From a bacterium (GTDB lineage: Bacteria > Zixibacteria > MSB-5A5 > GN15 > FEB-12): a stretch of 55,318 nucleotides of DNA. Below are positions 12,357 to 48,489 of the stretch, piece after piece. The notes below the pieces were generated by a model that saw only the letters and a program-made list of their open reading frames with translations, was not told the DNA's origin and made no database searches. Location: contig JAAERE010000079.1 of assembly GCA_024230675.1 (NCBI GenBank), positions 1 to 55,318 on the forward strand. Direction: 5' to 3'. Every line of letters begins with the position of its first letter. Position 1 is the stretch's first letter. The position numbers and the translations under genes are program-made.

Positions 12357-12420
12357 AGACGCATAACAGACGCTGCCACACCAGATTACTAGAATTGGAC
12401 GGACGGAGCCCGAGCTCTGA

Positions 12421-12464
12421 CGCACAGAATTTGTGCGTTCGACCATCGAGCCGCACAAATTCTG
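12421..12464. promoter_or_regulatory. Inverted-repeat cluster (three CGCACA/TGTGCG hexamers; 13-bp perfect arms CAGAATTTGTGCG / CGCACAAATTCTG separated by 14 nt); candidate enhancer-binding-protein site or atypical terminator
   Basis: Read directly: CGCACAGAATTTGTGCG-ttcgaccatcgagc-CGCACAAATTCTG. It starts 12 nt after the response-regulator stop and lies about 65-110 bp upstream of the -24/-12 candidate. No U-tract follows it. Confidence 0.35.
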
Positions 12465-13910: not shown

Positions 13911-14627
13911 CTATTCATCGGAACCGAAGAACACCTTAATTCCGGCGTGGAAGTCGAGCGTCGAGGCCGTCTCGCCGAAAACGTACGGTCCGGCATTGCC
14001 ATAGTCGCTCTTGACCTCAGAGGTCAGACCATGATGATAGTTGACCTCCAGGAAAAGACCACCATAATCGTGAGTGTAGTAAAAAAGACCTGCTCCGGCG
14101 CCGAAGGCAAAACCGGGGTCATATGAAAGTTCGCGATATTCGAAGCCGCCCTCGTTGGTGTCAAAGACTCTGGTTGTATACTTTACGATATCGAGACCTG
14201 CATGCCCTTTGACATAAGGCACCAGGGCAGATTCGCCGGCGAAGTAGTACTTCAGGTAGGCACTGGGACTATAAATGCGATGATGACGCGACTCGATCAA
14301 CGGCAGATCGGCGGCGTTGGGCACGTCAGGATCTATGGTGTACTGCGAGGCTGTGATATTGAAACCCAGCACCATGTTGGCGGTCAGGAAATATCCAACT
14401 TCGATGCCGAAGTTGAAGCCCATCTCGGTTCCCAACTGATACTGTACGCTATCGCTGGTCAGCCCCCAGTCACTAAGGCCGCCCATGGGAAGGGATCCGC
14501 CAAAAAACAGGGCCGCTTCCATGAAGTCTTTTTCAATTTCTTCTTCTTCGTCTTGAGCGATAACAGGAACATTGACACAAACAGATAACAACAGCAGAAC
14601 TGCCAGCACAGAAGAGAGTTTTTTCAT
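13911..14627 (-). CDS. Small outer-membrane beta-barrel protein (OmpA-barrel/OmpW-like class)
   Basis: 238 aa. Signal peptide MKKLSSVLAVLLLLSVCVNVPVIAQ. Alternating aromatic and Gly-rich amphipathic strands (FGIEVGYF, GFAFGAGAGLFYY, LFLEVNYHH, LDFHAGIKVFF). Confidence 0.7.
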   Translation of the reverse strand: MKKLSSVLAVLLLLSVCVNVPVIAQDEEEEIEKDFMEAALFFGGSLPMGGLSDWGLTSDSVQYQLGTEMGFNFGIEVGYFLTANMVLGFNITASQYTIDPDVPNAADLPLIESRHHRIYSPSAYLKYYFAGESALVPYVKGHAGLDIVKYTTRVFDTNEGGFEYRELSYDPGFAFGAGAGLFYYTHDYGGLFLEVNYHHGLTSEVKSDYGNAGPYVFGETASTLDFHAGIKVFFGSDE

Positions 14628-22004: not shown

Positions 22005-22029
22005 CGTCGAAGAGTAAGGCAACAAGAAT

Positions 22030-22049
22030 GCCCACCCGACCGGGTGGGC
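22030..22049 (-). terminator. Strong GC hairpin, possible terminator of the HU / bS22-like transcription unit
   Basis: GCCCACCCG-AC-CGGGTGGGC. On the minus strand it is followed by AUUCUUGUUGCC. It lies 148 nt downstream of the bS22-like stop codon. Confidence 0.4.
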
Positions 22050-22196
22050 AAATATTCTTGATATCAAATGACAACCCGTTGGCTATGCGAGCCTTACAGA
22101 TTGCATCCCCGATGGTGACCGTCTGAGGGGGGTCTGTTGGTGTCCCTCCTGAGGAAATTAGTTCCAGAATCCAGCGGATAGTTTTTCCGTTATCGC

Positions 22197-34122: not shown

Positions 34123-34809
34123 TCAGCCGTCGCCCGAGGTTTCACCCCAATTGAGGCTCCGGACGGTCATTTCCACCTCGGCCAGAACCGTGGCTACGTA
34201 CGGCCATTCGCACATGACGTGGAACAGGTAGATATGGTCGCCGTGTTTGACCGCGCCGATAGCACCGCCATAGGAGCTGCGAACCAGCTTACCTCCCACG
34301 GACGAGGCGGAGGTGGACACGATCTGCCGGTACTTGACCTGCCCCTTCCACATAACTCCCGATTCACCCGCGATCTCCAGCCGGGACCTTCCCTTGGGGA
34401 CAACTTCGCCATCGTAAATGTCCGACGGCTGCAAAATCTCGAACTCTTTGACGATTTCCTTCTTCTGATTCGACTTGAAGCTTTCCGACGTCAGAGAGTC
34501 CAGAAATGCGTGCGCGCCCAGGCTGGTCGTATCCACGTAAACGACGATGCGCGGAATTTTAGTGTAGTCCGGAGCGTTCACGAAATCGGAAGGAATTCCG
34601 TAGTTCTTCTTCGTGATCGTCAGGCGAACATTGTCGTCCTTCTTATTGACGCGCGCCTTCCAATTTTCATGAATCGAGAGCGCAAAGCCGTAGCTGGCGT
34701 CGGTATAGACGCCGTCTTTCACTGCTCCGGCCTTGGGTTTCTTGCGCCGGGCGTCCGCCATCGGGGCGAGCATAAGACCGGCCAGAATAGTAATAACGAG
34801 TTTCTTCAT
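34123..34809 (-). CDS. Secreted protein of unknown function
   Basis: Start at the ATG at 34809, preceded by AGGAGG, gives MKKLVITILAGLMLAPMADA. I recognise no motifs. The track start at 34908 adds 33 non-signal residues. Confidence 0.6.
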   Translation of the reverse strand: MKKLVITILAGLMLAPMADARRKKPKAGAVKDGVYTDASYGFALSIHENWKARVNKKDDNVRLTITKKNYGIPSDFVNAPDYTKIPRIVVYVDTTSLGAHAFLDSLTSESFKSNQKKEIVKEFEILQPSDIYDGEVVPKGRSRLEIAGESGVMWKGQVKYRQIVSTSASSVGGKLVRSSYGGAIGAVKHGDHIYLFHVMCEWPYVATVLAEVEMTVRSLNWGETSGDG

Positions 34810-35024
34810 CACCATTTCCTCCTGCAGCAATACCCGTAAGTATCTACAACGATTAAGCCTTGTCCGGGCAATAGTCAAGGATTTAATGGACGAATCCGTC
34901 CGATGCACTTACTCATTGATACACAAGAGCTTTGGAACCGTTCCTGTAATCTCGGCGGCAGCGACAGAGACCTCCGCCGTAGGCCGTAATGTTATGTCGG
35001 CGAAAGAATTACGAAAGGCCCAAT

Positions 35025-35894
35025 TTACCCCTCAAAACCGATACGGTTGCGCGCCGAAGAGCGAATGTGATCCATCAAGGTGGAGAAGTGGAAGTCACCC
35101 AGCAGACGGTTCAGCTTGATTTCCAGCGTATCGGTTGACCCGTAGGTTCTGAATCGCTGTAGCATCGTCAGGCCGGTTATCGGAGGTGGCTGGGGATCGA
35201 TTTCCCACGGGTGGACGTAAACCATAGCCGGCCGGCCCTGGTCGTTCAGTTTGCGGATCATCCGGCGGGAATACCAGTACGGTGAGTGCCTAAGATATCC
35301 GCCGCCGCCCAGGGGAAGGTTCTGACCGAAAAGGCGGTGGGTTGAGGCCGGGACTTCATAGAGATACTTACCGCTCTCCAACCTCATTTTGAACAGTTCA
35401 CGAGGACCATCGGGCATGCCGTAAATGTCATGTTTGATGGGAAAGATAGAACTGTCGTACTCGAAGCCAAACTCCCCCAGGATTTCGAAGGCCCAGGTAA
35501 CGTCCTCGTTGATGGACCAACTGGGAGCCCGGTAGCCAAGCGGCCGAAAACCGGAAGTGTTCACTATAGCTTCAAGGGCCCGTTCGGTGTCCTCCCGAAA
35601 AACCTCCGGTTCGAGCTGGTCTACCCGGCGATGTCGATAACTGTGGCAGCCGATCTCGTGGCCGTGGTCGGCGATGCGGCGCATCAGGTCCGGGTGGCGC
35701 TCAGCACACCAGCCGACGATAAACCAGGTAGCCTGAACATCGTGGCGGCGAAACAGAGCCAGCAGGCGTTCGCAGTTTCGTTCCAGGGTAGTGGGCAGGC
35801 CGGGCCAGTCTTCGAATCTGATCCTGTCGGCCAGACTCTCGACCACAAACCATTCTTCGAGATCAACGGTGAGTACGTTCGATTGGCGTTTCAT
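35025..35894 (-). CDS. Polysaccharide deacetylase family protein with DUF3473-type C-terminus (PEP-CTERM/XrtA-locus subfamily-like)
   Basis: 289 aa. LTVDLEEWF, ATWFIVGWCAERHPDLMRRIADHGHEIGCHSYRH, YRAPSWS, GGGGYLRHSPY. Confidence 0.8.
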   Translation of the reverse strand: MKRQSNVLTVDLEEWFVVESLADRIRFEDWPGLPTTLERNCERLLALFRRHDVQATWFIVGWCAERHPDLMRRIADHGHEIGCHSYRHRRVDQLEPEVFREDTERALEAIVNTSGFRPLGYRAPSWSINEDVTWAFEILGEFGFEYDSSIFPIKHDIYGMPDGPRELFKMRLESGKYLYEVPASTHRLFGQNLPLGGGGYLRHSPYWYSRRMIRKLNDQGRPAMVYVHPWEIDPQPPPITGLTMLQRFRTYGSTDTLEIKLNRLLGDFHFSTLMDHIRSSARNRIGFEG

Positions 35895-35911: not shown

Positions 35912-36718
35912 TTATTTGGGGATTCGGTTCTTCCGGGGTGAATCGGTCTCTTTTTCCGATTGGTCGGTCTTGGAAGCCCGCACGGCGCCGGGGTTGTTTC
36001 GATTGTCAATCGGTTTGCCGCTGTCGTGGCGCTGACTGTAATCGTAGTTGTAGTGGCTGTAGTCGTAGTAGTAAGGCAGGCTTCCCTTGACGTTGTTCAG
36101 CACCACACCAAGGAGGTTGATCTGGCTGGAAGACAGAATATCAGCGGCTCGCTGGGCCACTTCGCGCGCCGTCGATCCGGCCTTCACGATCAGAACCGCG
36201 CCGTCCATCTCCTGAGCCAGCAACATGGGATCCGAGACGGGAATGACCGGCGGAGTATCAACGAACACGAAATCATAATAGAATTTCAGTTCGTGGACCA
36301 GCCCCCCGATTATCCTTGAGTCGAACAGTTCCGTAGGGTGCGCCACGGCCTTGCCGGCGGTAATAATATCAAGATTGTCGAGCGAGGTTTTTTTGACGAC
36401 GCTTTTGACCTCATCGCCGTTATGTAGCACCTCGGACATTCCCTTGCCTCGCTCGCAGGCGAACAGTCGATGTACCGAGGGCCGTCTCAGATCACAGTCT
36501 ATCAACAGCGTCTTATGACCCTTGTAAGCAGCTGTGATGCTCATTAGCGAGGCCACGGTCGACTTGCCCTCGGAAGTAATGGCCGAAGTAAAGAGGATCG
36601 ATTTGAGGTCCGCCTCCTTCCCCTTTCTCTGAAACGTGTGCAGGAGGCGGCGAAACTCCGTGGCTACCGGAGACTCGAGCGAGTAATAGTCAATGAGCGG
36701 CATCGATGGACGAGCCAT
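35912..36718 (-). CDS. Stand-alone bacterial tyrosine (BY) kinase catalytic domain (CpsD/CapB / EpsG-like)
   Basis: 268 aa. Walker A SAITSEGKSTVA, A' LLIDCDLRRP, Walker B FVFVDTPPV, and a C-terminal Tyr cluster LPYYYDYSHYNYDYS. There is no transmembrane segment. Confidence 0.85.
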   Translation of the reverse strand: MARPSMPLIDYYSLESPVATEFRRLLHTFQRKGKEADLKSILFTSAITSEGKSTVASLMSITAAYKGHKTLLIDCDLRRPSVHRLFACERGKGMSEVLHNGDEVKSVVKKTSLDNLDIITAGKAVAHPTELFDSRIIGGLVHELKFYYDFVFVDTPPVIPVSDPMLLAQEMDGAVLIVKAGSTAREVAQRAADILSSSQINLLGVVLNNVKGSLPYYYDYSHYNYDYSQRHDSGKPIDNRNNPGAVRASKTDQSEKETDSPRKNRIPK

Positions 36719-36729
36719 ATGGAATTGTC

Positions 36730-37854
36730 CTATCTCTTCCCGGTTATTTTTCCGACCGCTTCGTCGATTACTCGACGAACCTGGTCAGACTGGTTCAGGG
36801 CTTCCGTCACACCCGGCAGAGAAGAATTCATCTCAGCCGTTTTGCGGAACTGCTCTACTCCCTTACGCCAGACTAGCCGGGAGTGTTCCAGATAACAGTG
36901 GGCCAATTCGGCCTGGAGGTCAACGTAAGTTGGATTGCGGCCCAGCTCCCCTTCCAAAAAACCGATGCGGTCAACCAGTGATCTTTCCGACACCAGACCC
37001 GGGGAGGTAACGAATCTCATGTAATAAGCCGAGAATTCCTTGCGCCGGCTTTCTTTGCGTGCATCTCTTATCTCCCGGAAGAGAATGAGCGCGCGGCCTC
37101 TATCGCCGGTCTTCAGCGCCTGCAGCCCGTCTTCAAAGTCACTTCTCTTCTTGAACTCAGGATAGATCAGCGAAGCCTTGTGCAAATAGCCGGTTATTCT
37201 CTCGACCGAGGGAGCAGCTCCTCCCGACGGTCCGGCGTTGATCGAAGCCAGGAGATGCGCCAACCCCAGATTAAGGTAGGCGTCGCCGTAATACATGTTG
37301 ACGCTTATCGCCTCCTGGAACTCGCCAATGGCCGCTTCAGGATTGTTGTCGGCCAGATAGGCCTCACCAAGGCTGTTGCGATAATCAGCGTAACCTGGTC
37401 GAGCCGCAACCGCGCGGCGGGCGGCCTCGACCGCTTCGTCAAAACGCCCCAGGGCGAGGTAGGTCATTCCCAAATAGTTGGCAGACTGATGGTGTCCGGC
37501 TCTCAACTGCTCCGCCTGTACAAAAAGGCGGGCGGCCTCAGTGAAAAATCGTTTATAGAAAAAGGCCGTGCCGAGCTGGTAGGTCGTGTCCGGGTCGCCC
37601 TGCTGCACGACCTCGCTGTAAGTCTGTAGCAGCGTCTCAACTTCCTTCTTTTTCTCCCCGTGAGTGAGCTTAACCAGCGAAAGGACTTCCTGCGGGTCTG
37701 ATTCCGCAGGATGGGGACAGCTGACGGTCTCGGCCTGGACGCCGTCAACAAAGATGGTAGTGGAGACTGAGCCTACCGAAGGATCGTTGGTCGTGTGGAT
37801 GAGATACTCGCGGTCGTCTTCTCTAAGCTTGCTGTTAATACGATAGGTTTCCAT
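36730..37854 (-). CDS. Cytoplasmic TPR-repeat protein
   Basis: I prefer the ATG at 37854 (METYRINSK...), because the track start at 37863 is a TTG. Several TPR units (ANYLGMTYLALGRFDEAVEAARRAVAARPGYADYRNSLGEAYL...). No signal peptide or TM segment is evident. Confidence 0.75.
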   Translation of the reverse strand: METYRINSKLREDDREYLIHTTNDPSVGSVSTTIFVDGVQAETVSCPHPAESDPQEVLSLVKLTHGEKKKEVETLLQTYSEVVQQGDPDTTYQLGTAFFYKRFFTEAARLFVQAEQLRAGHHQSANYLGMTYLALGRFDEAVEAARRAVAARPGYADYRNSLGEAYLADNNPEAAIGEFQEAISVNMYYGDAYLNLGLAHLLASINAGPSGGAAPSVERITGYLHKASLIYPEFKKRSDFEDGLQALKTGDRGRALILFREIRDARKESRRKEFSAYYMRFVTSPGLVSERSLVDRIGFLEGELGRNPTYVDLQAELAHCYLEHSRLVWRKGVEQFRKTAEMNSSLPGVTEALNQSDQVRRVIDEAVGKITGKR

Positions 37855-37945
37855 ACGCCTCAAACAGTTTCCCGATTGTTACTTCATAACGTCCCTGACT
37901 CCTCGATAGTTCTCTATCGGGCCCGGGAAAAGCACAGCGGGAGGC

Positions 37946-38917
37946 CTACAATTCCCGGATGAGGAAGACGGTAGTGGTAAGCACTCCCAGGACCGTGGCC
38001 ACGCCGGTTAAGCCACCTGAGAAGAAACCGGACCGCTGAGTCGGGACGACAAACATATCTTCCTTCTGCATTATGTATCGGACCGGACGTCCGGTTTGTG
38101 AGTATTTCTCGAGGTCAAAACGTACCGTCTGAGCAAACCGGCCGTCTTTCAGGATCAACTGAGTCTTTCTCAGATCGGCGTCAGCGGTCGGACCGCCGGC
38201 CAGGGCCAGCGCCTCAATAACGTCGATACCCTCTTCGTATTTAATCGGCCCCGGTGAGGAAACCGCCCCGATAACATATATCAGATTCTTCTTCTCGGTG
38301 CTCTGCCCCACCTCGGCCGCCAGCACCTGCCCGGGTGTCCTCGGAATCTCAATCGTGTCCTGTCGGCGGACTTTTGGCAGATCGGAGAGCCTGCCTTCGG
38401 CTATCGCCTGGCTGATGTTTACGACCTCAATCTCTCCCGCCTGATCGCCGCCGCGAATAATCGTCACCCGGCTGAGATCGCCCAGTTCACCAACGCCGCC
38501 GGCCTCGTTGATCAGGGTCCACAGGTCGGGAATTTCCTCGAAAGCCAGCTTACCGGGAGAATTGACCTGGCCGATCACGAATACATGATTGTGATAATAT
38601 CCCGAGACCCTCACAGTGGCCTGAGAGATATTCTCTTTGAGGCGCGACATAAGGCGCACAATATCGGTCTGCAACTCCTCGGTCGTCTTCCCGGCGGCCT
38701 GGATCTGACCGATGATGTCCAGCGTGATCCTGCCGTCAAGGCCCACCGTGACCTGAACGTTCAGGCCCGGATCCTGCCAGAAGCTGACGTCAATGACATC
38801 CTCCACACCGATACGATATTCTGCCGCCATCAATTGACCGACAGCCAGTCCGGATAGCAGAAGCGCTACCGCCGCGACCTTAACAATCCCTGTTAACCAC
38901 AGACGTTTCATGTCCAT
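37946..38917 (-). CDS. Polysaccharide export protein (Wza/EpsE-like: Poly_export + SLBB domains, C-terminal helix)
   Basis: 323 aa. Signal sequence, then YRIGVEDVIDVSFWQDP...VTVGLDGRITLDIIGQIQAAGKTTEEL, an SLBB-like IYVIGAVSSPGPIKY, and a C-terminal hydrophobic helix GVATVLGVLTTTVFLI. Confidence 0.85.
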   Translation of the reverse strand: MDMKRLWLTGIVKVAAVALLLSGLAVGQLMAAEYRIGVEDVIDVSFWQDPGLNVQVTVGLDGRITLDIIGQIQAAGKTTEELQTDIVRLMSRLKENISQATVRVSGYYHNHVFVIGQVNSPGKLAFEEIPDLWTLINEAGGVGELGDLSRVTIIRGGDQAGEIEVVNISQAIAEGRLSDLPKVRRQDTIEIPRTPGQVLAAEVGQSTEKKNLIYVIGAVSSPGPIKYEEGIDVIEALALAGGPTADADLRKTQLILKDGRFAQTVRFDLEKYSQTGRPVRYIMQKEDMFVVPTQRSGFFSGGLTGVATVLGVLTTTVFLIREL

Positions 38918-39064: not shown

Positions 39065-40687
39065 TCAGGCAACAATGTACTTGTTGCGGCCGGCCTCTTT
39101 TGCTTTCAGCAGGGCCATATCGGCGGCGAATATGAGCTGTTCGGAGTTTTCTCCATGGTCGGGAAAGACCGCCCCCCCCTGGGAAATAGTGAAAACGAGG
39201 TCTGTGGTAATCTGATCGAATCTGAACTTGGAACCAACAATTTTCCGCTGCAGGCGGTCCATAAACTGGCGGCAGGTCGCCCGGTCGGATTCCGGCATAA
39301 CCACGCAGAACTCGTCGCCCCCGTAGCGCGCAATTACATCGATAGACCGAATCGACAGTCTCAGGACTTCGCCAATACGTTTGATGACAGCATCGCCGGC
39401 CTGGTGGCCGTAACGATCGTTGACGCTCTTCAATTCATCGAGATCGAAGATAATCAGCCCCAGCGAACGCTGGTATCGTTTGGCGCGATCGATCTCTTCC
39501 TCCAGACGTCTCAAGAAATAGCGGCGGTTGGCCAGACCCGTCAGATTGTCCGTGAACGACAGCTCTTCGACCTTCTCAAACGAGACCGCATTCTCCATCA
39601 GGTGGCCGGCGCTAGTCTCGTGTCGGCGCAGTTGCATTTGGATCTCGGCGGGCTTTCGACTATCGTTCCAGGTCATTATTCCGGCGCGGCCCTCGGTCAG
39701 GGGGAACTTGGAGAGATACATAAGCCCGGCTTCCTGCAGTTTCTCGCCCCAGGCGGCCGCCTCCGCCCCGTGATCTTTCAACTGCCCCACGGATATCCAC
39801 CCGTTGACCGACAAGCGCCCGACCAGATCGGCGAATTTCTCATGGCGAGGCGGTTCGAACTGACGGGTCGTGCCCGCTTCGACTATCCGCAGAGGATCGG
39901 ATGCACATTTGGGCTCGTACAGGAAAGCCATGCTCTCCAGACCTATGTCTTTCTGCATCTCTTCCACAATCTCTCCAACGAGAGTCTCGGAATTGCGGTG
40001 TCGAACCAGCTTTAGCACGCCCATCGCGGGTGCCTTACTCTCGACCGCACGCGCCAAGGCCTCGTTCTCTGCCTCCGCGACGCGGTCCTGCAGTTTCCCG
40101 AATTTGCTCTCGTGCCAACGAATGTGATAGGCCGCCGACAGGGATTGCGCCAGGGCCGCCACAAGGAGCTTGAACGAAGGCGTCCGCGTTTCAATAGAAC
40201 TTCTGATGAAATACAGGCCGTACAGGTGATCCCGCCAGAATATTGGGAAATACAGATCGCATTTCCATTCGTGCAGTTTGCGACAGAGATTTTCCGGCAG
40301 ATAGCTCTCCAGATCGGAGACTTCCTCGGGGAAAACCTGACCTCTCAATCGATTGACCAGATCGTCCGAGTATCGGGTGCGGAGGTCCTTCCGGTCAAAT
40401 CGACTAATGCCGTGGAAATAGTTCAGATCAAGAGACCGCCGCCGCTTCCGCAAAAAGAGAATGATCTCACAGCCACAGGCGTGTTTGAGAAGGTCGGATA
40501 CTTTGCCAGCCACGTCCTGAATCGAGCCTTCAAGACAGTTGGTGCGCAAGAAATCGGAGAATTCTTCCAGATCCATCCTGGCTATTGCGGCCAGACGACG
40601 CCTCTCTGACCTGATTCGGATCAGCAGGATCGTGGCAAGAATCACCACAAGAACGATGAGAAATATGACCAGCACGGTCTGCGTCAT
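39065..40687 (-). CDS. Membrane-anchored diguanylate cyclase (TM - GAF-like sensory region - GGDEF with I-site)
   Basis: 540 aa. N-terminal TM VLVIFLIVLVVILATILLI. GGDEF domain LTGLANRRYF...IIFDLDELKSVNDRYGHQAGD...RSIDVIARYGGDEFCVVM, with the RxxD motif five residues before GGDEF. Confidence 0.9.
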   Translation of the reverse strand: MTQTVLVIFLIVLVVILATILLIRIRSERRRLAAIARMDLEEFSDFLRTNCLEGSIQDVAGKVSDLLKHACGCEIILFLRKRRRSLDLNYFHGISRFDRKDLRTRYSDDLVNRLRGQVFPEEVSDLESYLPENLCRKLHEWKCDLYFPIFWRDHLYGLYFIRSSIETRTPSFKLLVAALAQSLSAAYHIRWHESKFGKLQDRVAEAENEALARAVESKAPAMGVLKLVRHRNSETLVGEIVEEMQKDIGLESMAFLYEPKCASDPLRIVEAGTTRQFEPPRHEKFADLVGRLSVNGWISVGQLKDHGAEAAAWGEKLQEAGLMYLSKFPLTEGRAGIMTWNDSRKPAEIQMQLRRHETSAGHLMENAVSFEKVEELSFTDNLTGLANRRYFLRRLEEEIDRAKRYQRSLGLIIFDLDELKSVNDRYGHQAGDAVIKRIGEVLRLSIRSIDVIARYGGDEFCVVMPESDRATCRQFMDRLQRKIVGSKFRFDQITTDLVFTISQGGAVFPDHGENSEQLIFAADMALLKAKEAGRNKYIVA

Positions 40688-40725
40688 GACCGGACCTATT
40701 GTATAACGGACTCTTACTTAATTGA

Positions 40726-40753
40726 ATAATAACCAATTACAGGGAATTGTCAA
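40726..40753 (-). promoter_or_regulatory. Sigma-70-like promoter candidate for the GGDEF gene
   Basis: Minus strand reads TTGACA (40753-40748), a 16-nt spacer, then TATTAT (40731-40726). Confidence 0.45.
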
Positions 40754-40769
40754 ATAAAACAGGCGGCGA

Positions 40770-41450
40770 TCAAGTGCGCCCCCAAGCGTAGCGGAACCGT
40801 GATCTCTTGCGAAGCAGGTTATTTCTTTTCAGGATGAAGAAGATTCTCCACCAACCCGCGGGCTGCTCCGAACTACGATTTTTGAGCTCCCGCCTGATCT
40901 CGGAGATGGTTACAAAAGGATCGTTCTTGACCATTTGCAGAGCCACCAACTCGGGGTCTTTCTCCACCTCCGCCGAAGGAGCTATATACGCCTCGGTACG
41001 GGCCACACGTCCGTCATCGGCCGCGGCGGCGACCTCTTCCACCACTGTCAGTTTTGTCGGGGCCCCTTTTTTTTTTCCGCCGGTCGGCGCCTGGCCCCTT
41101 CCGAACCGCTCCACGGCATCGTCCACCGAGGTGAAGATCTGAAGCACCTTATCAAACTCCAGCAGTTCGAAAATCTCGTGAACATCCGGTACCATACCGG
41201 CCAACTTGATATCCCCCGCGTTGGAGCGAACGTCCTTGATATGGGAGATAAAAATCCCCCAGCCCGCGGAAGAGATATAGTCGACGCCGGCTAAATCAAT
41301 AACGATCTTGTAGCGCCCCCGACGCAGCAGAGAGTCAATAACCTGCTCGAGTTCGTTGGCCGTCAACGTATCCACGACTCCGTCAACGCGAATCTCGGAG
41401 ACTTCACGGTCGTGGCCGCTCTCAGATAAAGAAATACTAATGTTTTCCAT
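40770..41450 (-). CDS. STAS-domain anti-sigma-factor antagonist-like protein with ~110-aa C-terminal extension
   Basis: 226 aa. STAS core IRVDGVVDTLTANELEQVI...IVIDLAGVDYISSAGWGIF...LAGMVPDVHEIFELLEFDKV, with a conserved phosphorylatable Ser in DYISSAG. After it come a Lys/Gly linker and a basic tail (ISEIRRELKN...LKRNNLLRKRSRFRY). Confidence 0.8.
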   Translation of the reverse strand: MENISISLSESGHDREVSEIRVDGVVDTLTANELEQVIDSLLRRGRYKIVIDLAGVDYISSAGWGIFISHIKDVRSNAGDIKLAGMVPDVHEIFELLEFDKVLQIFTSVDDAVERFGRGQAPTGGKKKGAPTKLTVVEEVAAAADDGRVARTEAYIAPSAEVEKDPELVALQMVKNDPFVTISEIRRELKNRSSEQPAGWWRIFFILKRNNLLRKRSRFRYAWGRT

Positions 41451-41526
41451 GCTCTTACCGGGTCATCCGTAGCTGTACACTTCTTTCCAATTGCCCAAAA
41501 ATCCGGCTAACATCAACTCCGGGCAA

Positions 41527-43584
41527 CTAAAAACTTCCTTCCTCGCCGGTTCCGGACTCCGGCAGGGTTCGGCTGTCGAGGGTTTGTTCGTCCAGTTCCT
41601 CGTCGTCCTCACGGTCCTCTTTAACGGCCACTGTTCGTCCCACCACAAAGGTTATGTCATCCCGTTGCGCCGCAAAACCGGAAAAGCTGTCGACCCTGTC
41701 AATAATCTCTTTGGACAGAGCCTTGAGTTCCGATTTGCGGTCGGCCTCCTGCCACCCCTGCAGGAAGTCAATCATACGCTCCAGGCCGTACTGATTGCCC
41801 TCGCGATCGACGGCCTCGGTAATTCCGTCGGTATAAATGAAGAACAGGTCGCCCTCGTCGAGTTGCAGGTCAAAGCTCTCCAGGGAATCGCCGAAGTCCT
41901 TTGCCAGGGTCACCGGCACGCCAAGGGGCATACCGGAGGGATTCAGCTTCACAACTTTGCGCGTGGCGGCCTTGTACAGCAACAGCGGGTTGTGTCCGGC
42001 CGAGACAAAGTCAAGTTTACGGGTCGAGGAGTCGAATATCGCCATGAGCACCGTAACAAACATACCGCGCGGCATGTTTCCCGAGAGGTAATCGTTGACC
42101 GACAGTAACGTATCCCGGGCCGAGGCAGAGCCCTGCGCAAAGATCCTGATCACCGTTCGCAGCATCGACATAACCAGCGAGGCGGGCACGCCTTTGCCGG
42201 AGACGTCCGCGACAACCAGACAGCAGCGACTGCCACCGATATCGAAAATGTCATATAGGTCTCCACCTATCATGGAGGCGGCGCGGTAAAAGGCGTCGAT
42301 CTCAAGACCCGGCAGATGTGGCAGGCGCACCGGGAGGAGGGTCTTTTGAATCTGCGAGGCGACCTCAATTTCCTTGGCCATTCTCTCGCGTTCGATCGCG
42401 CTTTCGCGGTCGCGCCTGAGACGCGTCATCATCTCGTTGAGGGCGCTCGAAATCTCGAAAAACTCGGCGGCGCCTTCAAGAGGCAGCTCGCTCTCAAGAT
42501 CGCCCGAAGAAAACCGTCGGACCCTACGGGTGATCGCCACGATCGGCTTCACGAAATAATTAGACAGTAGGTAGATACCCACAATGCCAATCACCAGCAG
42601 CAAGCCTGTGAACTGAAGGATTTTCTCTTTGGCGAGCTGTAAACGCTGCTGAACCAGTTCGGAAGAATATGTCAGATAGGCTGAGCCCAGCTCCCGGTTT
42701 CCGGCGCGTATAGGCAAAATCAGGTAGTTGGTTTCTCGGTTCTCTATCCGCCAGCGTTGCGGCGCAGATTGGAAGCCCGGGTCCGCCTCCGGGGGATATT
42801 GATAGGGTCTCCGGATATTGTGGATATCGTCCGAGTGGGCCAGAATGACGTTCGAGGAGTCGGTTAGTACGATGCGCTTGAGCACCGGGTTGGAAGTATA
42901 ATAGCTAATGACGAGTTCGTCGAACTCCACGTCACTGCGGCGGTTGATGATATACAGGCCGGCCTGTTCAGCCAGTGTTTTGCCGAGGGCGGCCACGGTT
43001 CCGTCGAGATAATTGTATACCTCGCGCGAAGATCGATCGTTGATGAAGTAGTAAGCCGTCCCGATAAGAATGCTCACGATAACCAGCGTCCAGAACGAGA
43101 ACTTGGCGCGTAACGTAAACATACGGCGCAACAGCGGCGGCGTGGCTGACCCGGCCTCCGCCCCCAGCCATTTGGTCATCCTCAGTTCGTTCTGCCCGGC
43201 CGAAGACACATATTCCACCGAATCCATGATCTTCTGGATCATGTAGAAGCCAAGACCGCCGCGTCGTCCGGACTCCACCAGCCGGTTCAGGTCGAGCTTG
43301 CCGGTACCTTCCGGCCGGAACGAACGTCCGGTATCTATCAACGAGAAACTGATAAGCTTTTTGTAGGTGACGATCCGCAGTCGGATGCTTCCCTTTTCAT
43401 AAAGGTAAGCGTGACGAATGATATTCGTGGCGCCTTCTTCGATAGCCAGGAGAACGGCCGATACGTACTTGCGATTCATACCGGCAGCGGTACAGACCTC
43501 GCGCACGATACGTTGGATGCTGTCGAGGTACTTCTCTTCCGCCTGAAACTCGGCGTTTATCTCCTTTGTTGGACGACGGAACAT
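41527..43584 (-). CDS. Fusion protein: RsbW/SpoIIAB-like Ser kinase (HATPase_c) - TM - extracytoplasmic region - TM - HAMP - PP2C/SpoIIE phosphatase
   Basis: 685 aa. Kinase motifs EEGATNIIRHAY, IDTGRSF, GGLGFYMIQKIMD. TM segments FWTLVIVSILIGTAYYFI and LLLVIGIVGIYLLSNYF. PP2C motifs GGDLYDIF, VVADVSGKGVPAS, IYTDGITEA, QRDDITFVV. Confidence 0.8.
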   Translation of the reverse strand: MFRRPTKEINAEFQAEEKYLDSIQRIVREVCTAAGMNRKYVSAVLLAIEEGATNIIRHAYLYEKGSIRLRIVTYKKLISFSLIDTGRSFRPEGTGKLDLNRLVESGRRGGLGFYMIQKIMDSVEYVSSAGQNELRMTKWLGAEAGSATPPLLRRMFTLRAKFSFWTLVIVSILIGTAYYFINDRSSREVYNYLDGTVAALGKTLAEQAGLYIINRRSDVEFDELVISYYTSNPVLKRIVLTDSSNVILAHSDDIHNIRRPYQYPPEADPGFQSAPQRWRIENRETNYLILPIRAGNRELGSAYLTYSSELVQQRLQLAKEKILQFTGLLLVIGIVGIYLLSNYFVKPIVAITRRVRRFSSGDLESELPLEGAAEFFEISSALNEMMTRLRRDRESAIERERMAKEIEVASQIQKTLLPVRLPHLPGLEIDAFYRAASMIGGDLYDIFDIGGSRCCLVVADVSGKGVPASLVMSMLRTVIRIFAQGSASARDTLLSVNDYLSGNMPRGMFVTVLMAIFDSSTRKLDFVSAGHNPLLLYKAATRKVVKLNPSGMPLGVPVTLAKDFGDSLESFDLQLDEGDLFFIYTDGITEAVDREGNQYGLERMIDFLQGWQEADRKSELKALSKEIIDRVDSFSGFAAQRDDITFVVGRTVAVKEDREDDEELDEQTLDSRTLPESGTGEEGSF

Positions 43585-43633: not shown

Positions 43634-45457
43634 CTAGTTGTCGGAGTCCTGGGCCCCCATGCGGAGCCGGGCCTGCTCGATATTGTTCAAAGTGTTGGGG
43701 TTGTTGGGGTATTTTGCCAGCACTTTTTGCCAGGCCTCTATGGCCTGCTGATATTCTTTGTTGCGCATGAACCTCAGACCGTCGAGATAGAGGCTCCATA
43801 TCTCAGCATCGTTCTGGAGGTCCTCAAGCGTCGCCGTCCGAGTCTGCGCTTCCTGAATCCTGTTGAGATAGTCGAGCGCCGTAGCCTCGTTCGGATTGAC
43901 GTCGAGAATTGCTCGGAACTGGGTCTTGGCAGCCTCATAGCGACCCTTCTCAAACATCTCTATGCCCAGCCTGATTTTCTCGGGCAGCCCCATGGTGGCC
44001 AAAACCTGCTGCTTGGATTGACTGGCACCTTCGTTGTCCGGATCGACATCCAGAATACGATTGTACGCTTCGATCGCCTCAACGAGACGCCCGGCCTCCC
44101 ACGCCTGCCGGGCGGTCTCGAAGTTGGCTGCTATTTCGTCCGACATGGACTGTCGTATCTGACGCTGAAGCTGCTGCGCCCGGTAATTGTCGGGATCGAT
44201 GTCAAAGATCAGTTCCAGAAGGTCGAGCGACGCCCGGTAGTGGCGCTGCGCGTACAGTTGGCCGGCCTGAGTTAAGAAGCCGCCCAGCGTCTGATTGAGC
44301 TCTTCCTGAGCCTCGAACAACAGCGTTTCCTGTTCTCGCTGTTTCCGTCTGGCCTCCTCGATGGCCGCTATCGATCCGATTATCTCCCGGTTGTCGGGCT
44401 GGTACTTCAGCGCTTCGCTGAAGAAGTAAGTCGCCGAGTCAAGGTGGAAGCGATGCAGATACAGATTGCCCTGCTCCATAAGCGCGGCGAACTGTTTTTC
44501 CTCCTCCGTGGGCTCCGGAGGCAGTGCCGCTATTTCCTTCAGACGTATCTGCTCCGAGACCGAATTCCCTATGAGGAATGACAGTGAGAAGTGGTGGATA
44601 TCGCTAACATAGTCGACGAGTTTGTAGGCATAGTCCACCTTGAGCCGTCGGTATTTAAGCCCCGCTCCAAACGACACATTGTCTCGGTCGTACCCCAGTC
44701 GCAGAGCAAAGGACCTGTGAAAATCTATTTCGGCACCGGCCCGCACTTTGAGATCGCGGTCTTCAGTCTTCTCAAGGTCGACAGCCGCGGTAAGCTGGAC
44801 GTACTCGGACACTGCCAGATCGGACAATGACAGTCCACCGACAACCGACACCGGCGTGCGTTCCGATGTGGCCTGTAGTTGAAGCTCCGGGGCACGAATG
44901 TCTCTAGCCATGACGCCCAAAGCGAGATGGCGATGTATTTTAGCGGTCAATCCCAGATCGAGGCCTATACCAAAATCAGTATGACCCGCCAGAGACTGAC
45001 GCAAGATCTTCAGACTCGTGCCAATCGCAAAGCGGTTCCCCAGCGACCGGCCGTAGGAGAGCAGCGACTGGGAGTAGGCGTAATGGAAAGCCCCACGGTC
45101 CAAATAGTCCACACGTCGGGTGATGTCCTCGGTGCCCAGGCGCATTATGCCAATGCCCAGGCCGTGGTGGTCTCCGATCGGATAGACCCACGAGACAACG
45201 TCGTAAATGCTGCCTTCCAGCAGAACAGTGTGCATGGCAGCGAATTCCTGAAACTCAAGAGAGGAGAGCCCCGACGGGTTGTAATAGAGCGATGTGGCGT
45301 CGTCGGCCATCGACACGAAACCGCCGCCCATGCCCAGCGGACGGGCACCGGCGCCGATAGCGAACGGCGTCTCCCTTCCAGCGTCTCCCGCCTGGGCCGT
45401 GCTGATACAGACCGACAAAAGAAGCACCAGGGCGATGTATTTCGATACTCTCATCAT
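43634..45457 (-). CDS. Outer-membrane beta-barrel (PorV/PorQ/UPF0164-like) fused to a ~300-aa C-terminal TPR region
   Basis: Start at the ATG at 45457, or at 45454, overlapping the stop codon of the upstream gene (ATGA). Signal peptide MMRVSKYIALVLLLSVCISTAQA. N-terminal motif GAGARPLGMGGGFVSMADDATSLYYNPSGLS. The C-terminal half consists of TPR units (ALKYQPDN, IFDIDPDN, ILDVDPDN, ILDVNPNE, LAKYPNNP). Confidence 0.65.
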   Translation of the reverse strand: MMRVSKYIALVLLLSVCISTAQAGDAGRETPFAIGAGARPLGMGGGFVSMADDATSLYYNPSGLSSLEFQEFAAMHTVLLEGSIYDVVSWVYPIGDHHGLGIGIMRLGTEDITRRVDYLDRGAFHYAYSQSLLSYGRSLGNRFAIGTSLKILRQSLAGHTDFGIGLDLGLTAKIHRHLALGVMARDIRAPELQLQATSERTPVSVVGGLSLSDLAVSEYVQLTAAVDLEKTEDRDLKVRAGAEIDFHRSFALRLGYDRDNVSFGAGLKYRRLKVDYAYKLVDYVSDIHHFSLSFLIGNSVSEQIRLKEIAALPPEPTEEEKQFAALMEQGNLYLHRFHLDSATYFFSEALKYQPDNREIIGSIAAIEEARRKQREQETLLFEAQEELNQTLGGFLTQAGQLYAQRHYRASLDLLELIFDIDPDNYRAQQLQRQIRQSMSDEIAANFETARQAWEAGRLVEAIEAYNRILDVDPDNEGASQSKQQVLATMGLPEKIRLGIEMFEKGRYEAAKTQFRAILDVNPNEATALDYLNRIQEAQTRTATLEDLQNDAEIWSLYLDGLRFMRNKEYQQAIEAWQKVLAKYPNNPNTLNNIEQARLRMGAQDSDN

Positions 45458-48400
45458 TTGAGCACCGCCACTTTCAATACCGCCTGGGCACCTGTCCACT
45501 CGTCGGTCAGAACCGCCAGGTAAACGCCGTTGAGGACCATCTGCCCTCTATCGTTGCGCCCATCCCATTCAAGTGTCCGAGAACCGGTGAGACCCTCAGC
45601 GGGAAGCGTCTTGCGATACACGATCTCTCCGGAAAGGGTTAGAATCCTGAATACGATCGTGCCCGCTTCCGCCTGAAAGAACTGGAACTCGGCCGGACGA
45701 GAAAGCGGGTTGAACGGGTTGTCTCGAATAATGAACGACCCCACAAGATCGGCAGCTACCGTAGTAAAAACCTCGCTGACCACCTCTTCCTCACCGCTCT
45801 GGCTGCTGATCTCAACTTGCTGCCCCCCTATGGGACCGGAGGCAAAAACGGCCTTTATGTCTTCCATCATCAACGAGACGCCAAAGACGCCGCCAGCATT
45901 GGCAAGTATCCTGGAGCGCAGCACCAACTCAACGGGTGAAGTGCCGTTGATGATGTAGTCTTCGAATGTGAGATTGAGACGATTACCACCGGCAGTGGCC
46001 CGGGTGACTTCGCGTAAACCGTCGAACAATCCGGTACTCCCCACCTCCAGCACAGACCTCACGCTGACGGGCTGTCCTTCGGCATCCTTAAGGGCAAACG
46101 ACATCGATTGCATCGCGACGGCTGTTACCGAGGACGTGCCTTTGTTGTCGAGAACCAGGCGAATCAGATCGCGGGTTTTGCCGGGGAAAACAACGTTTGG
46201 AAGAACCGGTTCGGCTGAGACGAGCAGCTCCAAATCCTCGGAAAGCACGGCCAGATTGGTCTCAAACTCGGTCTCACCGATTTGCGCGGGTAGACCCGTG
46301 TTTATGTCCAACGGGATTTCTGTTAGCCCGAAGTTGATCGTTAGGGAAGTGTCGAAGGATGGCGCCAGGAACTCAATACCGGCCGGCTGGCCAACCTCCA
46401 CCGACAGGACGAGCGGGTCGGGGACGCCCAGATCCAGACCGTTGGTGGTGAGAGTGAATTCACCGTCGGAGGTCTCGGCCTCACCGCTGTTAACGATGGT
46501 CAGGATCAGATCAAAGTCATCGTTGACCGTCACATAGCCATCGCTGGCCCCGCGCAACAGAACGGACACCGTCAGGAGCGCCGGTTCCTGGATCATAGCC
46601 TGAGCTATGTTGTCGATAGGCGGCAGTTGATTTACCCCCAGGCTGGTTATGTCTACGCGGAAGATCTCGGAGGCATTGGCCACCGGAGAGGCCTGCACGA
46701 CAATGAAAGAATCTATAACGCTCTCGCCGGGCACGCCGGGGATAGTGTGGTCGGACTCAAAGACGGAAGCGCCGTCCGATACCAGGCGGATATTGAAAGG
46801 TGGTTGGTCTGTCGTTGACAGATTGGCGATCCGGAAAGAAATCCTGAATTCCTGATTCGTATTTACGTTTGGGCTATTGGGCGCTACTACAGAGACTTCG
46901 GTTATCTGCACAGTTGGTAGTTCTTCGACCACCACAGCCTGGCTGTCGAAGTCGGTCGTGAAGGTCAGCCAATTGGCTGAACCCTCCCTATGGAACGTGA
47001 CTGTGGCCGCAACTTCCAGGGAGTCACCCAGATGACTGGGGGGAATGAACACCTGGCCCGTCGTCACATGATTGAGTCCGGGGATTAGTGAATCGCCTTC
47101 CACCACCAGACTGGCGGCCGCAGAAAAACTCCCGCCACTGATCAGGAACCAACTCAGGTCGTAGTCCAAGTGCACCGGAGACGACCCGCCCAGCGAGAAG
47201 TCGAATTCGAAGGTTGATTCCTGGCCAGAGGACACCTCAACCGGACCGAAACTGCCCGGCACATACCCGAGAGCGGGAGCGAGTAACAGGAACAGGGAAT
47301 CGGTCGGGGATGGGTCCAGACAAAATACGCTGCCTCCCGACGACAATCGAAAGTCCAGTCTGACGTCGAACCAACCCTCGGTCAGACCAAGACTGGAATC
47401 GACCATGGCTTCCAGATCGGCATAGCTTATTATCGAGTCTTCAAACGCCGCGTATTTCGGCGAGCCATCGTATATAGTTGCGATTACGGAGTCGGAAGCG
47501 CTCACCAGATGAACCGCCAGGCTGGTGCTGTCGATCGGGCCGGCAAAACCGCCGGTGGACACATCGAAGGACATATCGAACGAAACCCCGACGAACACAG
47601 ACTCGGGCACCAGGGAACCCTCGACAAGGCCGAAGTCAGCCGAGGGCAGGATTGTGACCGGCGTTCGCACCGTATCGGTGACCGCCAGCAGGCTGTCGGC
47701 GGGTTGGTAGGCGCTTTCCAATACCAGGACCAGCGTATCTTCCCCCGCGCTCAGGCCGGTTGTTGGCAGATCAATCTCCAGCGTATCCTGCATACCGCTG
47801 GTCTTGGGAGGGAAAAAGACTTTCACCGAGCCGCCGCCTGAAGCAAAAAACGCCTTCAATGTAGGCTCGGACTCGGCCAAAAGATCCCCGCCGTTTGATA
47901 CAGGTACCTTGATGGTAGCCGGCAGATCAGAGTAAACGCTTTCAACGGGATCGCCAAGGCGGTCGAAAACCGACAATATCTCGTAGCCGCTGTAGGAGAC
48001 CAGCGTCGACAGCGAAGAAACGCCTGAATTGGATGCGGTTATGGCGACCGTCCCGGAGGAGCCCTCATAAACCACGCCCAGCGGCAAAAAGTCTACTACT
48101 CCTGCCGCAAAGAGACTGGAGTCGCTAATGACATCCGGCGCTAGCAGCCCGGAGTCCGGGGCCAATTGGATAGGATCCCCGGCAAAATCATAGTCGGTCA
48201 CCAAAGCGGAGTTTTCATCGAGCAACAACACTCGAGCCGTACCGTGCAGAGGATAGCCGACTACCTGTTCGGATGCGATCTCAAGAACTAGTCGATCCAA
48301 AGCCTCAGCCTCGAACACCGCGGCGCCGGAGTCTGCGGCTGCTTGAGAAGTAGTCGCGTGACCGGATTCGCGGGACTGGGCGAAGGTTGTTTGAGACGTG

Positions 48401-48489
48401 ACAAAAAGCGTCAGCGTCAGCCAGAGGATTGCGAGCAGGATATGTTGCGCTCTTTTCACCAAATCAACTTTGTTTAGCGTGCAAAACAT
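45454..48489 (-). CDS. Large acidic Ser-rich secreted surface protein (tandem Ig/CARDB-like beta-sandwich regions) with T9SS-type / FlgD-Ig-like C-terminal domain
   Basis: 1011 aa. Signal peptide ...LTLTLFVTSQTTFAQS. C-terminus IRDNPFNPLSRPAEFQFF...IVFRILTLSGEIVYRK...LEWDGRNDRGQMVLNGVYLAVLT...LKVAVLK. I recognise no catalytic motif. Confidence 0.7.
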   Translation of the reverse strand: MFCTLNKVDLVKRAQHILLAILWLTLTLFVTSQTTFAQSRESGHATTSQAAADSGAAVFEAEALDRLVLEIASEQVVGYPLHGTARVLLLDENSALVTDYDFAGDPIQLAPDSGLLAPDVISDSSLFAAGVVDFLPLGVVYEGSSGTVAITASNSGVSSLSTLVSYSGYEILSVFDRLGDPVESVYSDLPATIKVPVSNGGDLLAESEPTLKAFFASGGGSVKVFFPPKTSGMQDTLEIDLPTTGLSAGEDTLVLVLESAYQPADSLLAVTDTVRTPVTILPSADFGLVEGSLVPESVFVGVSFDMSFDVSTGGFAGPIDSTSLAVHLVSASDSVIATIYDGSPKYAAFEDSIISYADLEAMVDSSLGLTEGWFDVRLDFRLSSGGSVFCLDPSPTDSLFLLLAPALGYVPGSFGPVEVSSGQESTFEFDFSLGGSSPVHLDYDLSWFLISGGSFSAAASLVVEGDSLIPGLNHVTTGQVFIPPSHLGDSLEVAATVTFHREGSANWLTFTTDFDSQAVVVEELPTVQITEVSVVAPNSPNVNTNQEFRISFRIANLSTTDQPPFNIRLVSDGASVFESDHTIPGVPGESVIDSFIVVQASPVANASEIFRVDITSLGVNQLPPIDNIAQAMIQEPALLTVSVLLRGASDGYVTVNDDFDLILTIVNSGEAETSDGEFTLTTNGLDLGVPDPLVLSVEVGQPAGIEFLAPSFDTSLTINFGLTEIPLDINTGLPAQIGETEFETNLAVLSEDLELLVSAEPVLPNVVFPGKTRDLIRLVLDNKGTSSVTAVAMQSMSFALKDAEGQPVSVRSVLEVGSTGLFDGLREVTRATAGGNRLNLTFEDYIINGTSPVELVLRSRILANAGGVFGVSLMMEDIKAVFASGPIGGQQVEISSQSGEEEVVSEVFTTVAADLVGSFIIRDNPFNPLSRPAEFQFFQAEAGTIVFRILTLSGEIVYRKTLPAEGLTGSRTLEWDGRNDRGQMVLNGVYLAVLTDEWTGAQAVLKVAVLK

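Follow-up and report, generated by a model that had tools for sequence, protein, structure and literature searches.

A candidate sigma-independent partner-switching module adjacent to a diguanylate cyclase in a surface/exopolysaccharide locus of Zixibacteria

We analyzed contig JAAERE010000079.1 (assembly GCA_024230675.1; Zixibacteria FEB-12), whose 55,318 nucleotides form the window studied here, and focused on three consecutive minus-strand genes at 39065-43584. In the order of the minus strand, they encode a fused kinase, sensor, and phosphatase that we call KP, a STAS protein, and a diguanylate cyclase. Our tentative preference, held with somewhat less than even confidence, is that this triad is a sigma-independent partner-switching module that lies in a surface/exopolysaccharide locus and may be wired at the protein level to the adjacent cyclase. 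A preliminary description of the same DNA had proposed such a coupling of partner switching to cyclic di-GMP (c-di-GMP), and the coordinates, the three functional parts, and the gene order that it gave agree exactly with the open reading frames (ORFs) and their Pfam matches. A chance origin of the triad is of no concern, because the ORFs are long, the domain matches are strong, and full-length homologues number in the hundreds. The homologues of KP, STAS, and the cyclase have equal lengths and share 45-89% identity, and those that are named belong almost all to Zixibacteria/GN15. As the preliminary description had stated, no sigma factor gene was seen nearby: we found no Sigma70 domain in the scanned window ORFs of at least 150 amino acids (aa), a scan that covered neither smaller ORFs nor those overlapping called genes.

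The kinase domain of KP comes first and the PP2C domain last. Hydropathy analysis located hydrophobic segments at residues 156-182 (TM1) and 321-349 (TM2), separated by ∼138 aa, and in homologues this intervening segment matches sCache_3_2, a single Cache domain, while the window KP itself gave no Cache match at an E value of 0.01 or better. The bracketing of the sensor by two transmembrane segments would place both catalytic domains in the cytoplasm, on either side of a predicted periplasmic sensor. The Pfam scan of KP contained no Response_reg (REC) match, and the order of its parts is kinase, transmembrane segment, sensor, transmembrane segment, HAMP, PP2C; a transmembrane-sensor input and a domain order different from that of HsbR, both put forward earlier, are thus upheld. 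The catalytic motifs were invariant in 12 homologues, for the kinase an N-box EEGATN, a G1 DxG, and a G2 GGLGF, and for PP2C the ADVSGKG, TDG, and DD motifs, which include the metal-binding Asp motifs. More than 120 full-length homologues of KP share 58-89% identity with it, the named ones being from Zixibacteria/GN15. In the PDB, KP matched Rv1364c (the best sequence match), the PP2C domain of SiaA (6k4e, 2.4e-8), and RsbW (6m36). The NCBIfam RsbW model matched the kinase domain at 9e-17, which is under its cutoff.

The STAS domain PF01740 was matched at residues 17-112 of the second protein (2.5e-18), and its model superimposed on SpoIIAA 1th8_B with a target-normalized TM-score of 0.85 (Foldseek). 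S61 aligns with a SpoIIAA position at which one of the chain sequences 1th8_B and 1tid_B has Ser and the other has Ala, and which we take to be the phosphorylated Ser of SpoIIAA. Both S60 and S61 were invariant in 29 homologues, and the STAS domain as a whole is near-invariant over about eight phyla, with or without a cyclase.

The cyclase looks catalytically intact, as judged from its residues: 31 homologues share without exception the GGDEF motif, R447 and D450 of the I-site, the FDLD motif (D415/D417), N423, D432, K530, and R534, so that the intact GGDEF motif and RxxD I-site of the preliminary description stand, and the GGDEF domain aligns with PDB 3ign (3.7e-35) and with PleD. Hydropathy analysis gave a single transmembrane segment, at the N terminus (residues 1-29). 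In the AlphaFold2 model (mean pLDDT, 80), two GAF-like domains come next (40-165 and 233-345), with a long helix (170-212) between them, and a stalk helix (346-377) leads from the second of them into the GGDEF domain. The top Foldseek matches of the model were bacteriophytochrome-cyclases over the full length (6et7 and 5llw), the GAF-GGDEF protein Dcsbis, and SiaD (7e6g). According to the model, the cyclase would thus carry sensor domains of its own together with long helices like those that SiaC binds in SiaD (PMC8457831). The gap between the STAS and cyclase genes contains TTGACA-16-TATTAT, the best sigma-70-type site in the 15 kb scanned (34-49 kb). A -35 element TTGAC(A/T) with a -10 element TAnnAT was found by regular expression upstream of the cyclase in 16 of the 27 relatives searched, and several of these promoters read TGTTATAAT, with an extended -10. 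The cyclase is therefore probably its own transcription unit, driven by this predicted promoter.

Conservation of the three-gene neighborhood in relatives was borne out by 26 Zixibacteria-type loci besides the window, a total that may include the same organism sampled twice, in which the KP-STAS-cyclase order persists down to a KP identity of about 35%. Nine of them came from a forward scan of one genome per GTDB species by KP alignment, with all ORFs compared with the window proteins (KP identity, 66% to 35%). In the reverse scan, with the cyclase against metagenomes, STAS lay immediately upstream of every full-length cyclase relative for which upstream DNA was present, and in ten cases KP preceded STAS. 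Seven more genomes, fetched by exact protein, had the same order, including the closed chromosome CP070824.1. Indeed, no Zixibacteria-type locus in which KP, STAS, and the downstream DNA were all visible departed from the order. There were three exceptions, one of which, the block of L097-L099, is described below. In L009, the cyclase gene comes immediately after KP, STAS being absent. In L092, a STAS protein of 120 aa, lacking the C-terminal extension of the window protein and with no KP nearby, is followed by the cyclase and by the genes for the Wza-like exporter, the TPR protein, the BY-kinase, and the deacetylase found downstream in the window; this STAS protein has a Thr at the switch-adjacent position.

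In the mechanism that we tentatively favor, a periplasmic signal would pass via HAMP and shift the kinase/phosphatase balance of KP, which would set the phosphorylation of S61. Unphosphorylated STAS might then bind the helical stalk of the cyclase and activate it, in the manner of SiaC and SiaD; as a second option, the cyclase might be bound by the KP kinase domain and freed by STAS, a classical partner-switch logic in which the cyclase replaces the sigma factor. Raised c-di-GMP would drive polysaccharide export and surface-protein display. The occurrence of SiaD among the structural matches of the cyclase and the long helices that precede its GGDEF domain are in line with this. We favor wiring at the protein level because the adjacency is fixed and survives both in L092, which has neither the helix-turn-helix (HTH)-like part of STAS nor KP, and in L009, which has no STAS, and also because STAS alone is the zero-frame product in most genomes of the clade to which the window belongs (the crown clade; see below).

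Several observations weigh against such wiring. KP and STAS, with the same conserved STAS surface and the same extension, are also present in other phylum-level groups, at least seven in number, that have no cyclase beside them; therefore, the cyclase is not their ancestral partner, and the near-invariance of the STAS domain across those phyla is not attributable to it. A related block of cyclase, Wza, Wzz, BY-kinase, and deacetylase genes exists without KP or STAS (L097-L099). The cyclase has its own conserved putative promoter and two predicted GAF-like input domains, and the HTH-type domains of STAS and of long KP forms offer another potential output. Finally, distance-matrix (mirror-tree) co-evolution over 11 complete loci, in which all pairs correlated through shared phylogeny, gave a partial r of -0.03 for STAS-cyclase and 0.60 for KP-cyclase. 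Since the certain pair KP-STAS, the control, scored only 0.07, this test has no power, and we do not count it as evidence.

The other phyla also inform the history of the locus. A block consisting of a giant surface protein, a PorV-like/TPR protein, KP, and STAS was found in KSB1, Latescibacterota, Calditrichia, Eisenbacteria, Krumholzibacteria, FCPU426, and Omnitrophota, and the KP-STAS loci of these seven groups had no adjacent cyclase. The PorV/TPR protein precedes KP in nearly every phylum sampled. After STAS comes a relative of the 377-aa TPR protein of the window (KP-STAS-TPR order in L010, L011, L037, and L039) or housekeeping genes (Obg, DprA, GltX). As the cyclase and Wza genes of Zixibacteria are placed exactly between STAS and the TPR gene, we consider them an insertion. 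On this comparative evidence, KP-STAS, which is found in many candidate phyla of the FCB type, is the older unit and the cyclase a Zixibacteria-specific acquisition, which agrees with the earlier suggestion of an independently assembled circuit. In another lineage (L102, L104, L109, L121, L123, and L147), a 137-aa STAS gene is divergent from the gene of an 863-aa GAF-GGDEF-HD_5 (HD-GYP-type) protein, a pair that may represent an independent link from STAS to c-di-GMP.

This distribution could also be accommodated without any direct link between STAS and the cyclase. KP-STAS would then control the giant surface protein and the PorV-like/TPR machinery, or act directly on an export or biosynthetic protein, which has been proposed for SypA and All4160; the cyclase would respond on its own to ligands that bind its GAF-like domains, and the clustering would reflect a common surface/biofilm programme. 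The pan-phylum core of giant protein, PorV/TPR, KP, and STAS, with the TPR gene often coming next, fits such an arrangement, as do the housekeeping genes that follow STAS elsewhere, the separate promoter and sensor domains of the cyclase, and the cyclase-exopolysaccharide block without KP or STAS in L097-L099; targets other than a cyclase also have precedents (PMC4517449; bioRxiv 10.64898/2026.04.08.717354). However, the STAS-cyclase adjacency is fixed across deep divergence in the 26 loci and outlasts the absence of either KP (L092) or STAS (KP-cyclase in L009), and clustering this tight usually means more than a loose common pathway. We judge a shared pathway with no direct link to be unlikely.

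The STAS protein had been described as extended. The extension is real, but it is a second domain, joined to the first at a conserved poly-A tract of the gene. In the AlphaFold2 model, the STAS domain (1-117) is followed by a disordered linker (119-161) and a basic four-helix module (166-222), the helices of which have a pLDDT of about 70-87. A profile of this module retrieved only 92 relatives from 1.84 billion representatives, all of them either STAS fusions (215-266 aa) or short ORFs (56-115 aa) that start in the linker. Among the Zixibacteria modules, 8 of 18 matched HTH_Tnp_Tc3_2, at best with an E value of 1.3e-4, which is sub-threshold. The orthologues from outside Zixibacteria matched HTH_21 in 7 of 10 cases, the best being an Eisenbacteria orthologue (1.5e-5; 25.5 bits versus a cutoff of 28.1), and their extensions also gave sub-threshold matches to HTH_32 and Tc3_2. 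Thus, no HTH_21, HTH_32, or HTH_Tnp_Tc3_2 match of the STAS extension passes the Pfam gathering cutoff. PDB profile searches with the module returned nothing significant; the sole full-length match was the HTH of the Sleeping Beauty transposase (E = 0.28), and RecA matches were rejected as repeat artefacts. Foldseek with the whole STAS model returned matches to the STAS domain and none for the C-terminal part. These sub-threshold matches point to a separate small domain of a transposase-type, HTH-like kind. Conservation of the module extends beyond Zixibacteria to KSB1, Calditrichia, Eisenbacteria, and Omnitrophota, whether or not a cyclase is present. Two other roles for the extension were rejected: it has no hydrophobic segment that could serve as a membrane anchor, and its presence in phyla without a cyclase shows that it is not cyclase-specific.

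The linker joining the two domains contains the motif GKKKG, the codons of which are written GGAAAAAAAAAAGGG. They form an A10 homopolymer that is the sole A/T run of at least eight in the 55-kb window; Lys codons elsewhere are 150 AAA versus 190 AAG. An A9 or A10 run occupies this linker position in 21 of 21 crown-clade loci, and the nucleotides flanking it diverge. The run at this position was noted in L001-L003, L081-L095, and L162-L168. The C-terminal domain is in frame in eight crown-clade loci, every one of them with A10, and out of frame in the other 13 (12 in +2, one in +1), where reading in the zero frame yields STAS alone; the closed genome CP070824.1 belongs to this group. In the +2 loci, one extra A or a -1 shift would restore the frame. 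Deeper Zixibacteria and other phyla encode an in-frame STAS fusion with no A-run. We rejected the idea that the split ORFs arise from our ORF calling, as public gene calls split them identically, and we set aside a 133-aa STAS protein (P0238) that is truncated by the contig end and carries no information on the frameshift. Homopolymer assembly errors seem unlikely, since the out-of-frame arrangement recurs in 13 of 21 loci, drawn from various assemblies, and 12 of these are shifted in the same direction. A search for a stimulatory hairpin upstream of the A-run gave small GC hairpins in some loci, with unremarkable z-scores and no consistency.

In bacterial genomes, selection against slippage-prone runs is usually evident from length nine (PMC1088944). 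Known slippage sites (Thermus thermophilus dnaX with A9, Shigella mxiE, tssM1, tssM3) likewise place a long coding A-run at a domain boundary and have orthologues with the downstream domain in or out of frame, and two length variants are expected from them (PMC1088944, PMC4256274). Two length variants arise both from Citrobacter tssM1, an out-of-frame gene with A11, and from Yersinia tssM3, in which the frame is kept (PMC4256274). The STAS gene differs from these in that its host belongs to an uncultured phylum and its slippage site is a predicted one. The conserved A-run and the shifted downstream frame suggest programmed slippage, with a STAS-only and a STAS-plus-HTH-like isoform both probably being made; phase variation at the DNA level is a candidate alternative.

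The C-terminal module and the A-run together raise the possibility that the output of the system is DNA binding. STAS would act via its HTH-like domain, and KP of other lineages via an HTH of its own; phosphorylation would decide between STAS held by KP at the membrane and free STAS-HTH regulating the surrounding surface or exopolysaccharide genes, perhaps with the cyclase promoter among its sites; the cyclase itself would not bind STAS but would be under its control or simply lie beside it; and the poly-A run would set the ratio of decoy STAS-only to DNA-binding protein. The module is conserved across phyla irrespective of the cyclase, and the recurrent HTH_21, HTH_32, and Tc3-type matches and the Sleeping Beauty HTH point in this direction, but the matches of the extension all lie below curated cutoffs, the PDB match is not significant, and Foldseek with the whole STAS model gave no match for the four modelled helices. 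Long KP forms supply a second strand of evidence. In deep Zixibacteria and other phyla, HTH_23/28/29 and HTH_32 follow immediately after PP2C, exceeding Pfam cutoffs in L007 and L011, with single families passing in L005, L012, and L028; the window KP, however, has no HTH block. The conserved promoter directly downstream of the STAS gene would be a possible target, yet no operator-like repeat was identified. Furthermore, 13 of 21 crown-clade genomes encode nothing beyond STAS in the zero frame, and L092 retains the STAS-cyclase adjacency without the extension. DNA-binding-type domains are thus recurrent in the KP-STAS system, the assignment of the window's own STAS extension being sub-threshold, and we regard a DNA-binding output as possible but doubtful.

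The long KP orthologues, of 820-1470 aa (L005, L007, L011, L012, L014, L023, and L028), appear to form a family in which large partner-switch proteins carry HTH domains of their own. Some carry extra domains, namely three STAS domains in L012 and TPR repeats in L014 and L023, and their genes are often followed by a gene for a ParA/MinD-like ATPase.

A broader proposal, which we consider rather improbable as a whole, combines these elements. The A-run would be a site of programmed slippage, at which either RNA polymerase realigns or the ribosome shifts by -1 (A_AAA_AAA_AAG), and would set the isoform ratio. The unit would then be a kind of sigma-less partner switch not described before, with DNA binding as its built-in output, and would be common in FCB-type candidate phyla beside the PorV-like and giant surface proteins; Zixibacteria would have coupled a cyclase and an exporter to it.

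A classical anti-sigma mechanism must also be weighed. In this case, an alternative sigma factor whose gene lies outside the locus would be sequestered by the KP kinase domain until STAS sets it free. The kinase domain is indeed RsbW/SpoIIAB-like, and RpoS of Pseudomonas aeruginosa is reported to be regulated post-translationally through HsbR (PMC6482189). Nevertheless, the kinase is membrane-tethered and fused to its own phosphatase, the window scan described above gave no sigma factor, and none was noticed in the ∼10-kb flanks of related loci, which were compared only with the window locus proteins and of which a handful of ORFs were scanned with Pfam. We consider this mechanism very unlikely.

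The genes around the triad (Table 1) place it inside a cell-surface/exopolysaccharide locus, since the giant protein and the PorV/TPR protein lie upstream and the Wza-like, TPR, BY-kinase, and deacetylase genes lie downstream; in Zixibacteria relatives, these four follow the cyclase as they do in the window. The PorV/TPR protein passed the PorV/PorQ model NCBIfam NF033709 (112 bits versus a cutoff of 90, residues 48-308 of 621). With the giant FlgD_ig protein (both at 43634-48489; counterparts in L002-L044), it is part of the conserved four-gene block. In the window clade, the TPR gene comes directly after Wza and the BY-kinase has no nearby Wzz partner (35912-38917); in other Zixibacteria (L002, L167, and L168), a Wzz chain-length gene follows Wza. 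The deacetylase passes an XrtA/PEP-CTERM model, yet no exosortase was noticed in the window. Rfam gave no match in the whole window at gathering thresholds or in 34-49 kb at an E value of ≤1; hence, the window contains no c-di-GMP riboswitch. Genes of possible relevance elsewhere in the window encode another large protein, in which FlgD_ig is combined with a T9SS C-terminal sorting domain (19140-22067), a sigma-54-dependent response regulator (12476-13825), and a DUF4384 protein (9759-11396). Four ORFs of 238-415 aa (34123-34908, 17772-19019, 13911-14627, and 11419-12456) had no Pfam match, and the first of them, at the end of the exopolysaccharide block, had no NCBIfam match either.

Table 1. 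Features of the KP-STAS-cyclase locus in window coordinates
Feature	Position	Strand	Basis or remark
Giant surface protein, 1011 aa, C-terminal FlgD_ig	45454..48489	minus	Pfam; first gene of conserved block
PorV/PorQ-family beta-barrel fused to TPR repeats, 621 aa	43634..45499	minus	Directly upstream of KP
KP, fused RsbW-like Ser kinase, two-transmembrane periplasmic sensor, HAMP, and PP2C phosphatase, 685 aa	41527..43584	minus	Pfam
KP kinase domain, HATPase_c_2, residues 13-138, predicted cytoplasmic	43171..43548	minus	Pfam 5e-23
KP predicted periplasmic sensor segment, residues ~183-320	42625..43038	minus	Hydropathy; sCache_3_2 in homologues
KP HAMP, residues 339-391	42412..42570	minus	Pfam 6e-10
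KP PP2C/SpoIIE phosphatase, residues 452-650	41635..42231	minus	Pfam 3e-44
STAS gene, 226 aa: STAS domain, disordered linker, C-terminal helical domain	40770..41450	minus	Pfam, AlphaFold2
STAS domain, residues 1-117	41100..41450	minus	Foldseek to SpoIIAA 1th8_B
Predicted phospho-Ser S61 of STAS (codon)	41268-41270	minus	Alignment to SpoIIAA
A10 homopolymer (T10 on plus strand), linker GKKKG; candidate slippage site	41067..41076	minus	Run scan
C-terminal helical, basic, HTH-like domain of STAS, residues 162-226	40773..40967	minus	AlphaFold2, profile searches
Predicted sigma-70-type promoter TTGACA-16-TATTAT between STAS and cyclase	40726..40753	minus	11/12 positions match
Diguanylate cyclase gene, 540 aa: transmembrane segment, GAF-like, long helix, GAF-like, stalk helix, GGDEF	39065..40687	minus	Pfam, AlphaFold2
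GGDEF domain, residues 378-536	39080..39556	minus	Pfam 3.5e-46
GGDEF motif, residues 456-460	39308-39322	minus	Motif
RxxD I-site (RSID), residues 447-450	39338-39349	minus	Five residues upstream of GGDEF
Wza-like exporter	37946-38917	minus	Pfam/NCBIfam; after cyclase
377-aa TPR protein	36730-37863	minus	After Wza
BY-kinase ATPase	35912-36718	minus	After TPR gene
XrtA-type polysaccharide deacetylase	35025-35894	minus	TIGR03006, 321 bits versus cutoff 276

Partner switching with a non-sigma output is known from few cases, proteobacterial and cyanobacterial. The locus described here would show the same logic, built differently, with kinase and phosphatase fused around a periplasmic sensor, and fixed in an uncultured phylum with a dedicated c-di-GMP synthase. 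As a compact three-gene system, it is testable in Escherichia coli. Two further aspects may outweigh the coupling first proposed for this DNA: KP-STAS as a pan-phylum module that is tied to a PorV-like and a giant surface protein and carries HTH domains, and the conserved slippery A-run at the STAS domain boundary as a recoding candidate in a signalling protein.

With respect to known systems, the locus is an analogue rather than a member, because curated and architectural membership tests were not passed. All components of the canonical partner switches (RsbU/V/W; SpoIIE/AA/AB), i.e., PP2C, an RsbW-type kinase, and a STAS protein with a conserved Ser, are present, whereas the cognate sigma factor gene that stands alongside them in those systems was not found among the scanned ORFs. 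Stressosome STAS-based modules with GGDEF output exist in Moorella, PDB 3zxn being among the STAS structural matches; stressosomes, however, are large RsbR/S/T assemblies, which are not present at the window locus. Rv1364c of Mycobacterium tuberculosis (3ke6), the best PDB match of KP, likewise fuses partner-switch domains in one polypeptide but, unlike KP, is cytoplasmic and has its own STAS.

The preliminary description had taken HsbR/HsbA/HsbD as its precedent; this system shares the principle only, and SiaABCD and SypE/SypA fit better. HsbR is a response regulator whose N-terminal REC domain, fed by HptB in a phosphorelay, is followed by PP2C and then by the kinase domain, and hsbD lies near the hsb cluster. 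Compared with HsbR, KP has no REC and the opposite domain order, and compared with the single-domain HsbA, the window STAS protein has the fold and the Ser but also a second domain joined at the poly-A. In the HptB-HsbR-HsbA-HsbD pathway as in the triad, a kinase/phosphatase and a STAS protein occur together with a membrane cyclase, the shared principle being partner switching that feeds c-di-GMP; HsbA interacts with HsbD in P. aeruginosa (PMC5085249). HsbR is also reported to act on RpoS (PMC6482189). A further partner-switch-like module, HenR/All4160, acts directly on polysaccharide synthesis with no sigma factor (bioRxiv 10.64898/2026.04.08.717354).

In architecture and setting, the closest precedent is SypE/SypA. 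SypA is a single STAS domain, and the window STAS protein has two domains; we know of no cyclase adjacent to SypA. In Vibrio fischeri, one protein, SypE, likewise has Ser-kinase and Ser-phosphatase outputs, both directed at a conserved STAS Ser, and the system is part of a polysaccharide locus (PMC4517449), which has its counterpart here in the downstream Wza, BY-kinase, and XrtA-type deacetylase genes. SypA is active when unphosphorylated, and its target is not a sigma factor (PMC4517449). SypE is a cytoplasmic response regulator with phosphorelay input (PMC4517449), whereas the input of KP comprises a transmembrane segment, a Cache-like sensor, a second transmembrane segment, and HAMP.

SiaABCD of P. 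aeruginosa is the closest precedent in logic and gene order. It likewise comprises a phosphatase with two transmembrane segments, HAMP, and PP2C, an RsbW-type kinase, an antagonist-fold switch phosphorylated on one residue, and a cyclase that comes last in the run, with a biofilm output and no need for a sigma factor (PMC7647112, PMC8457831). SiaC binds the stalk of SiaD and activates it, and phosphorylation by SiaB blocks this activation (PMC8457831, PMC7647112). SiaA aligns with the C-terminal half of KP over HAMP and PP2C, where the architecture is the same. The SiaA equivalog NF038263 scored 57.7 bits against a cutoff of 700, over HAMP and PP2C only, and the SiaD equivalog NF038266 scored 150 bits against a cutoff of 290, over the GGDEF domain only. 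The two systems also differ in construction: SiaB is a separate kinase gene, whereas here the kinase is fused to the N terminus of the phosphatase protein; the SiaC-type switch uses Thr68, whereas here a canonical PF01740 STAS domain with a Ser is followed by an extra domain; and SiaD has a small N-domain and a stalk, whereas the cyclase of the window has a transmembrane anchor, two GAF-like domains, and apparently its own promoter. Partner switching that feeds c-di-GMP or exopolysaccharide is already established, and the locus is a new build of that idea.

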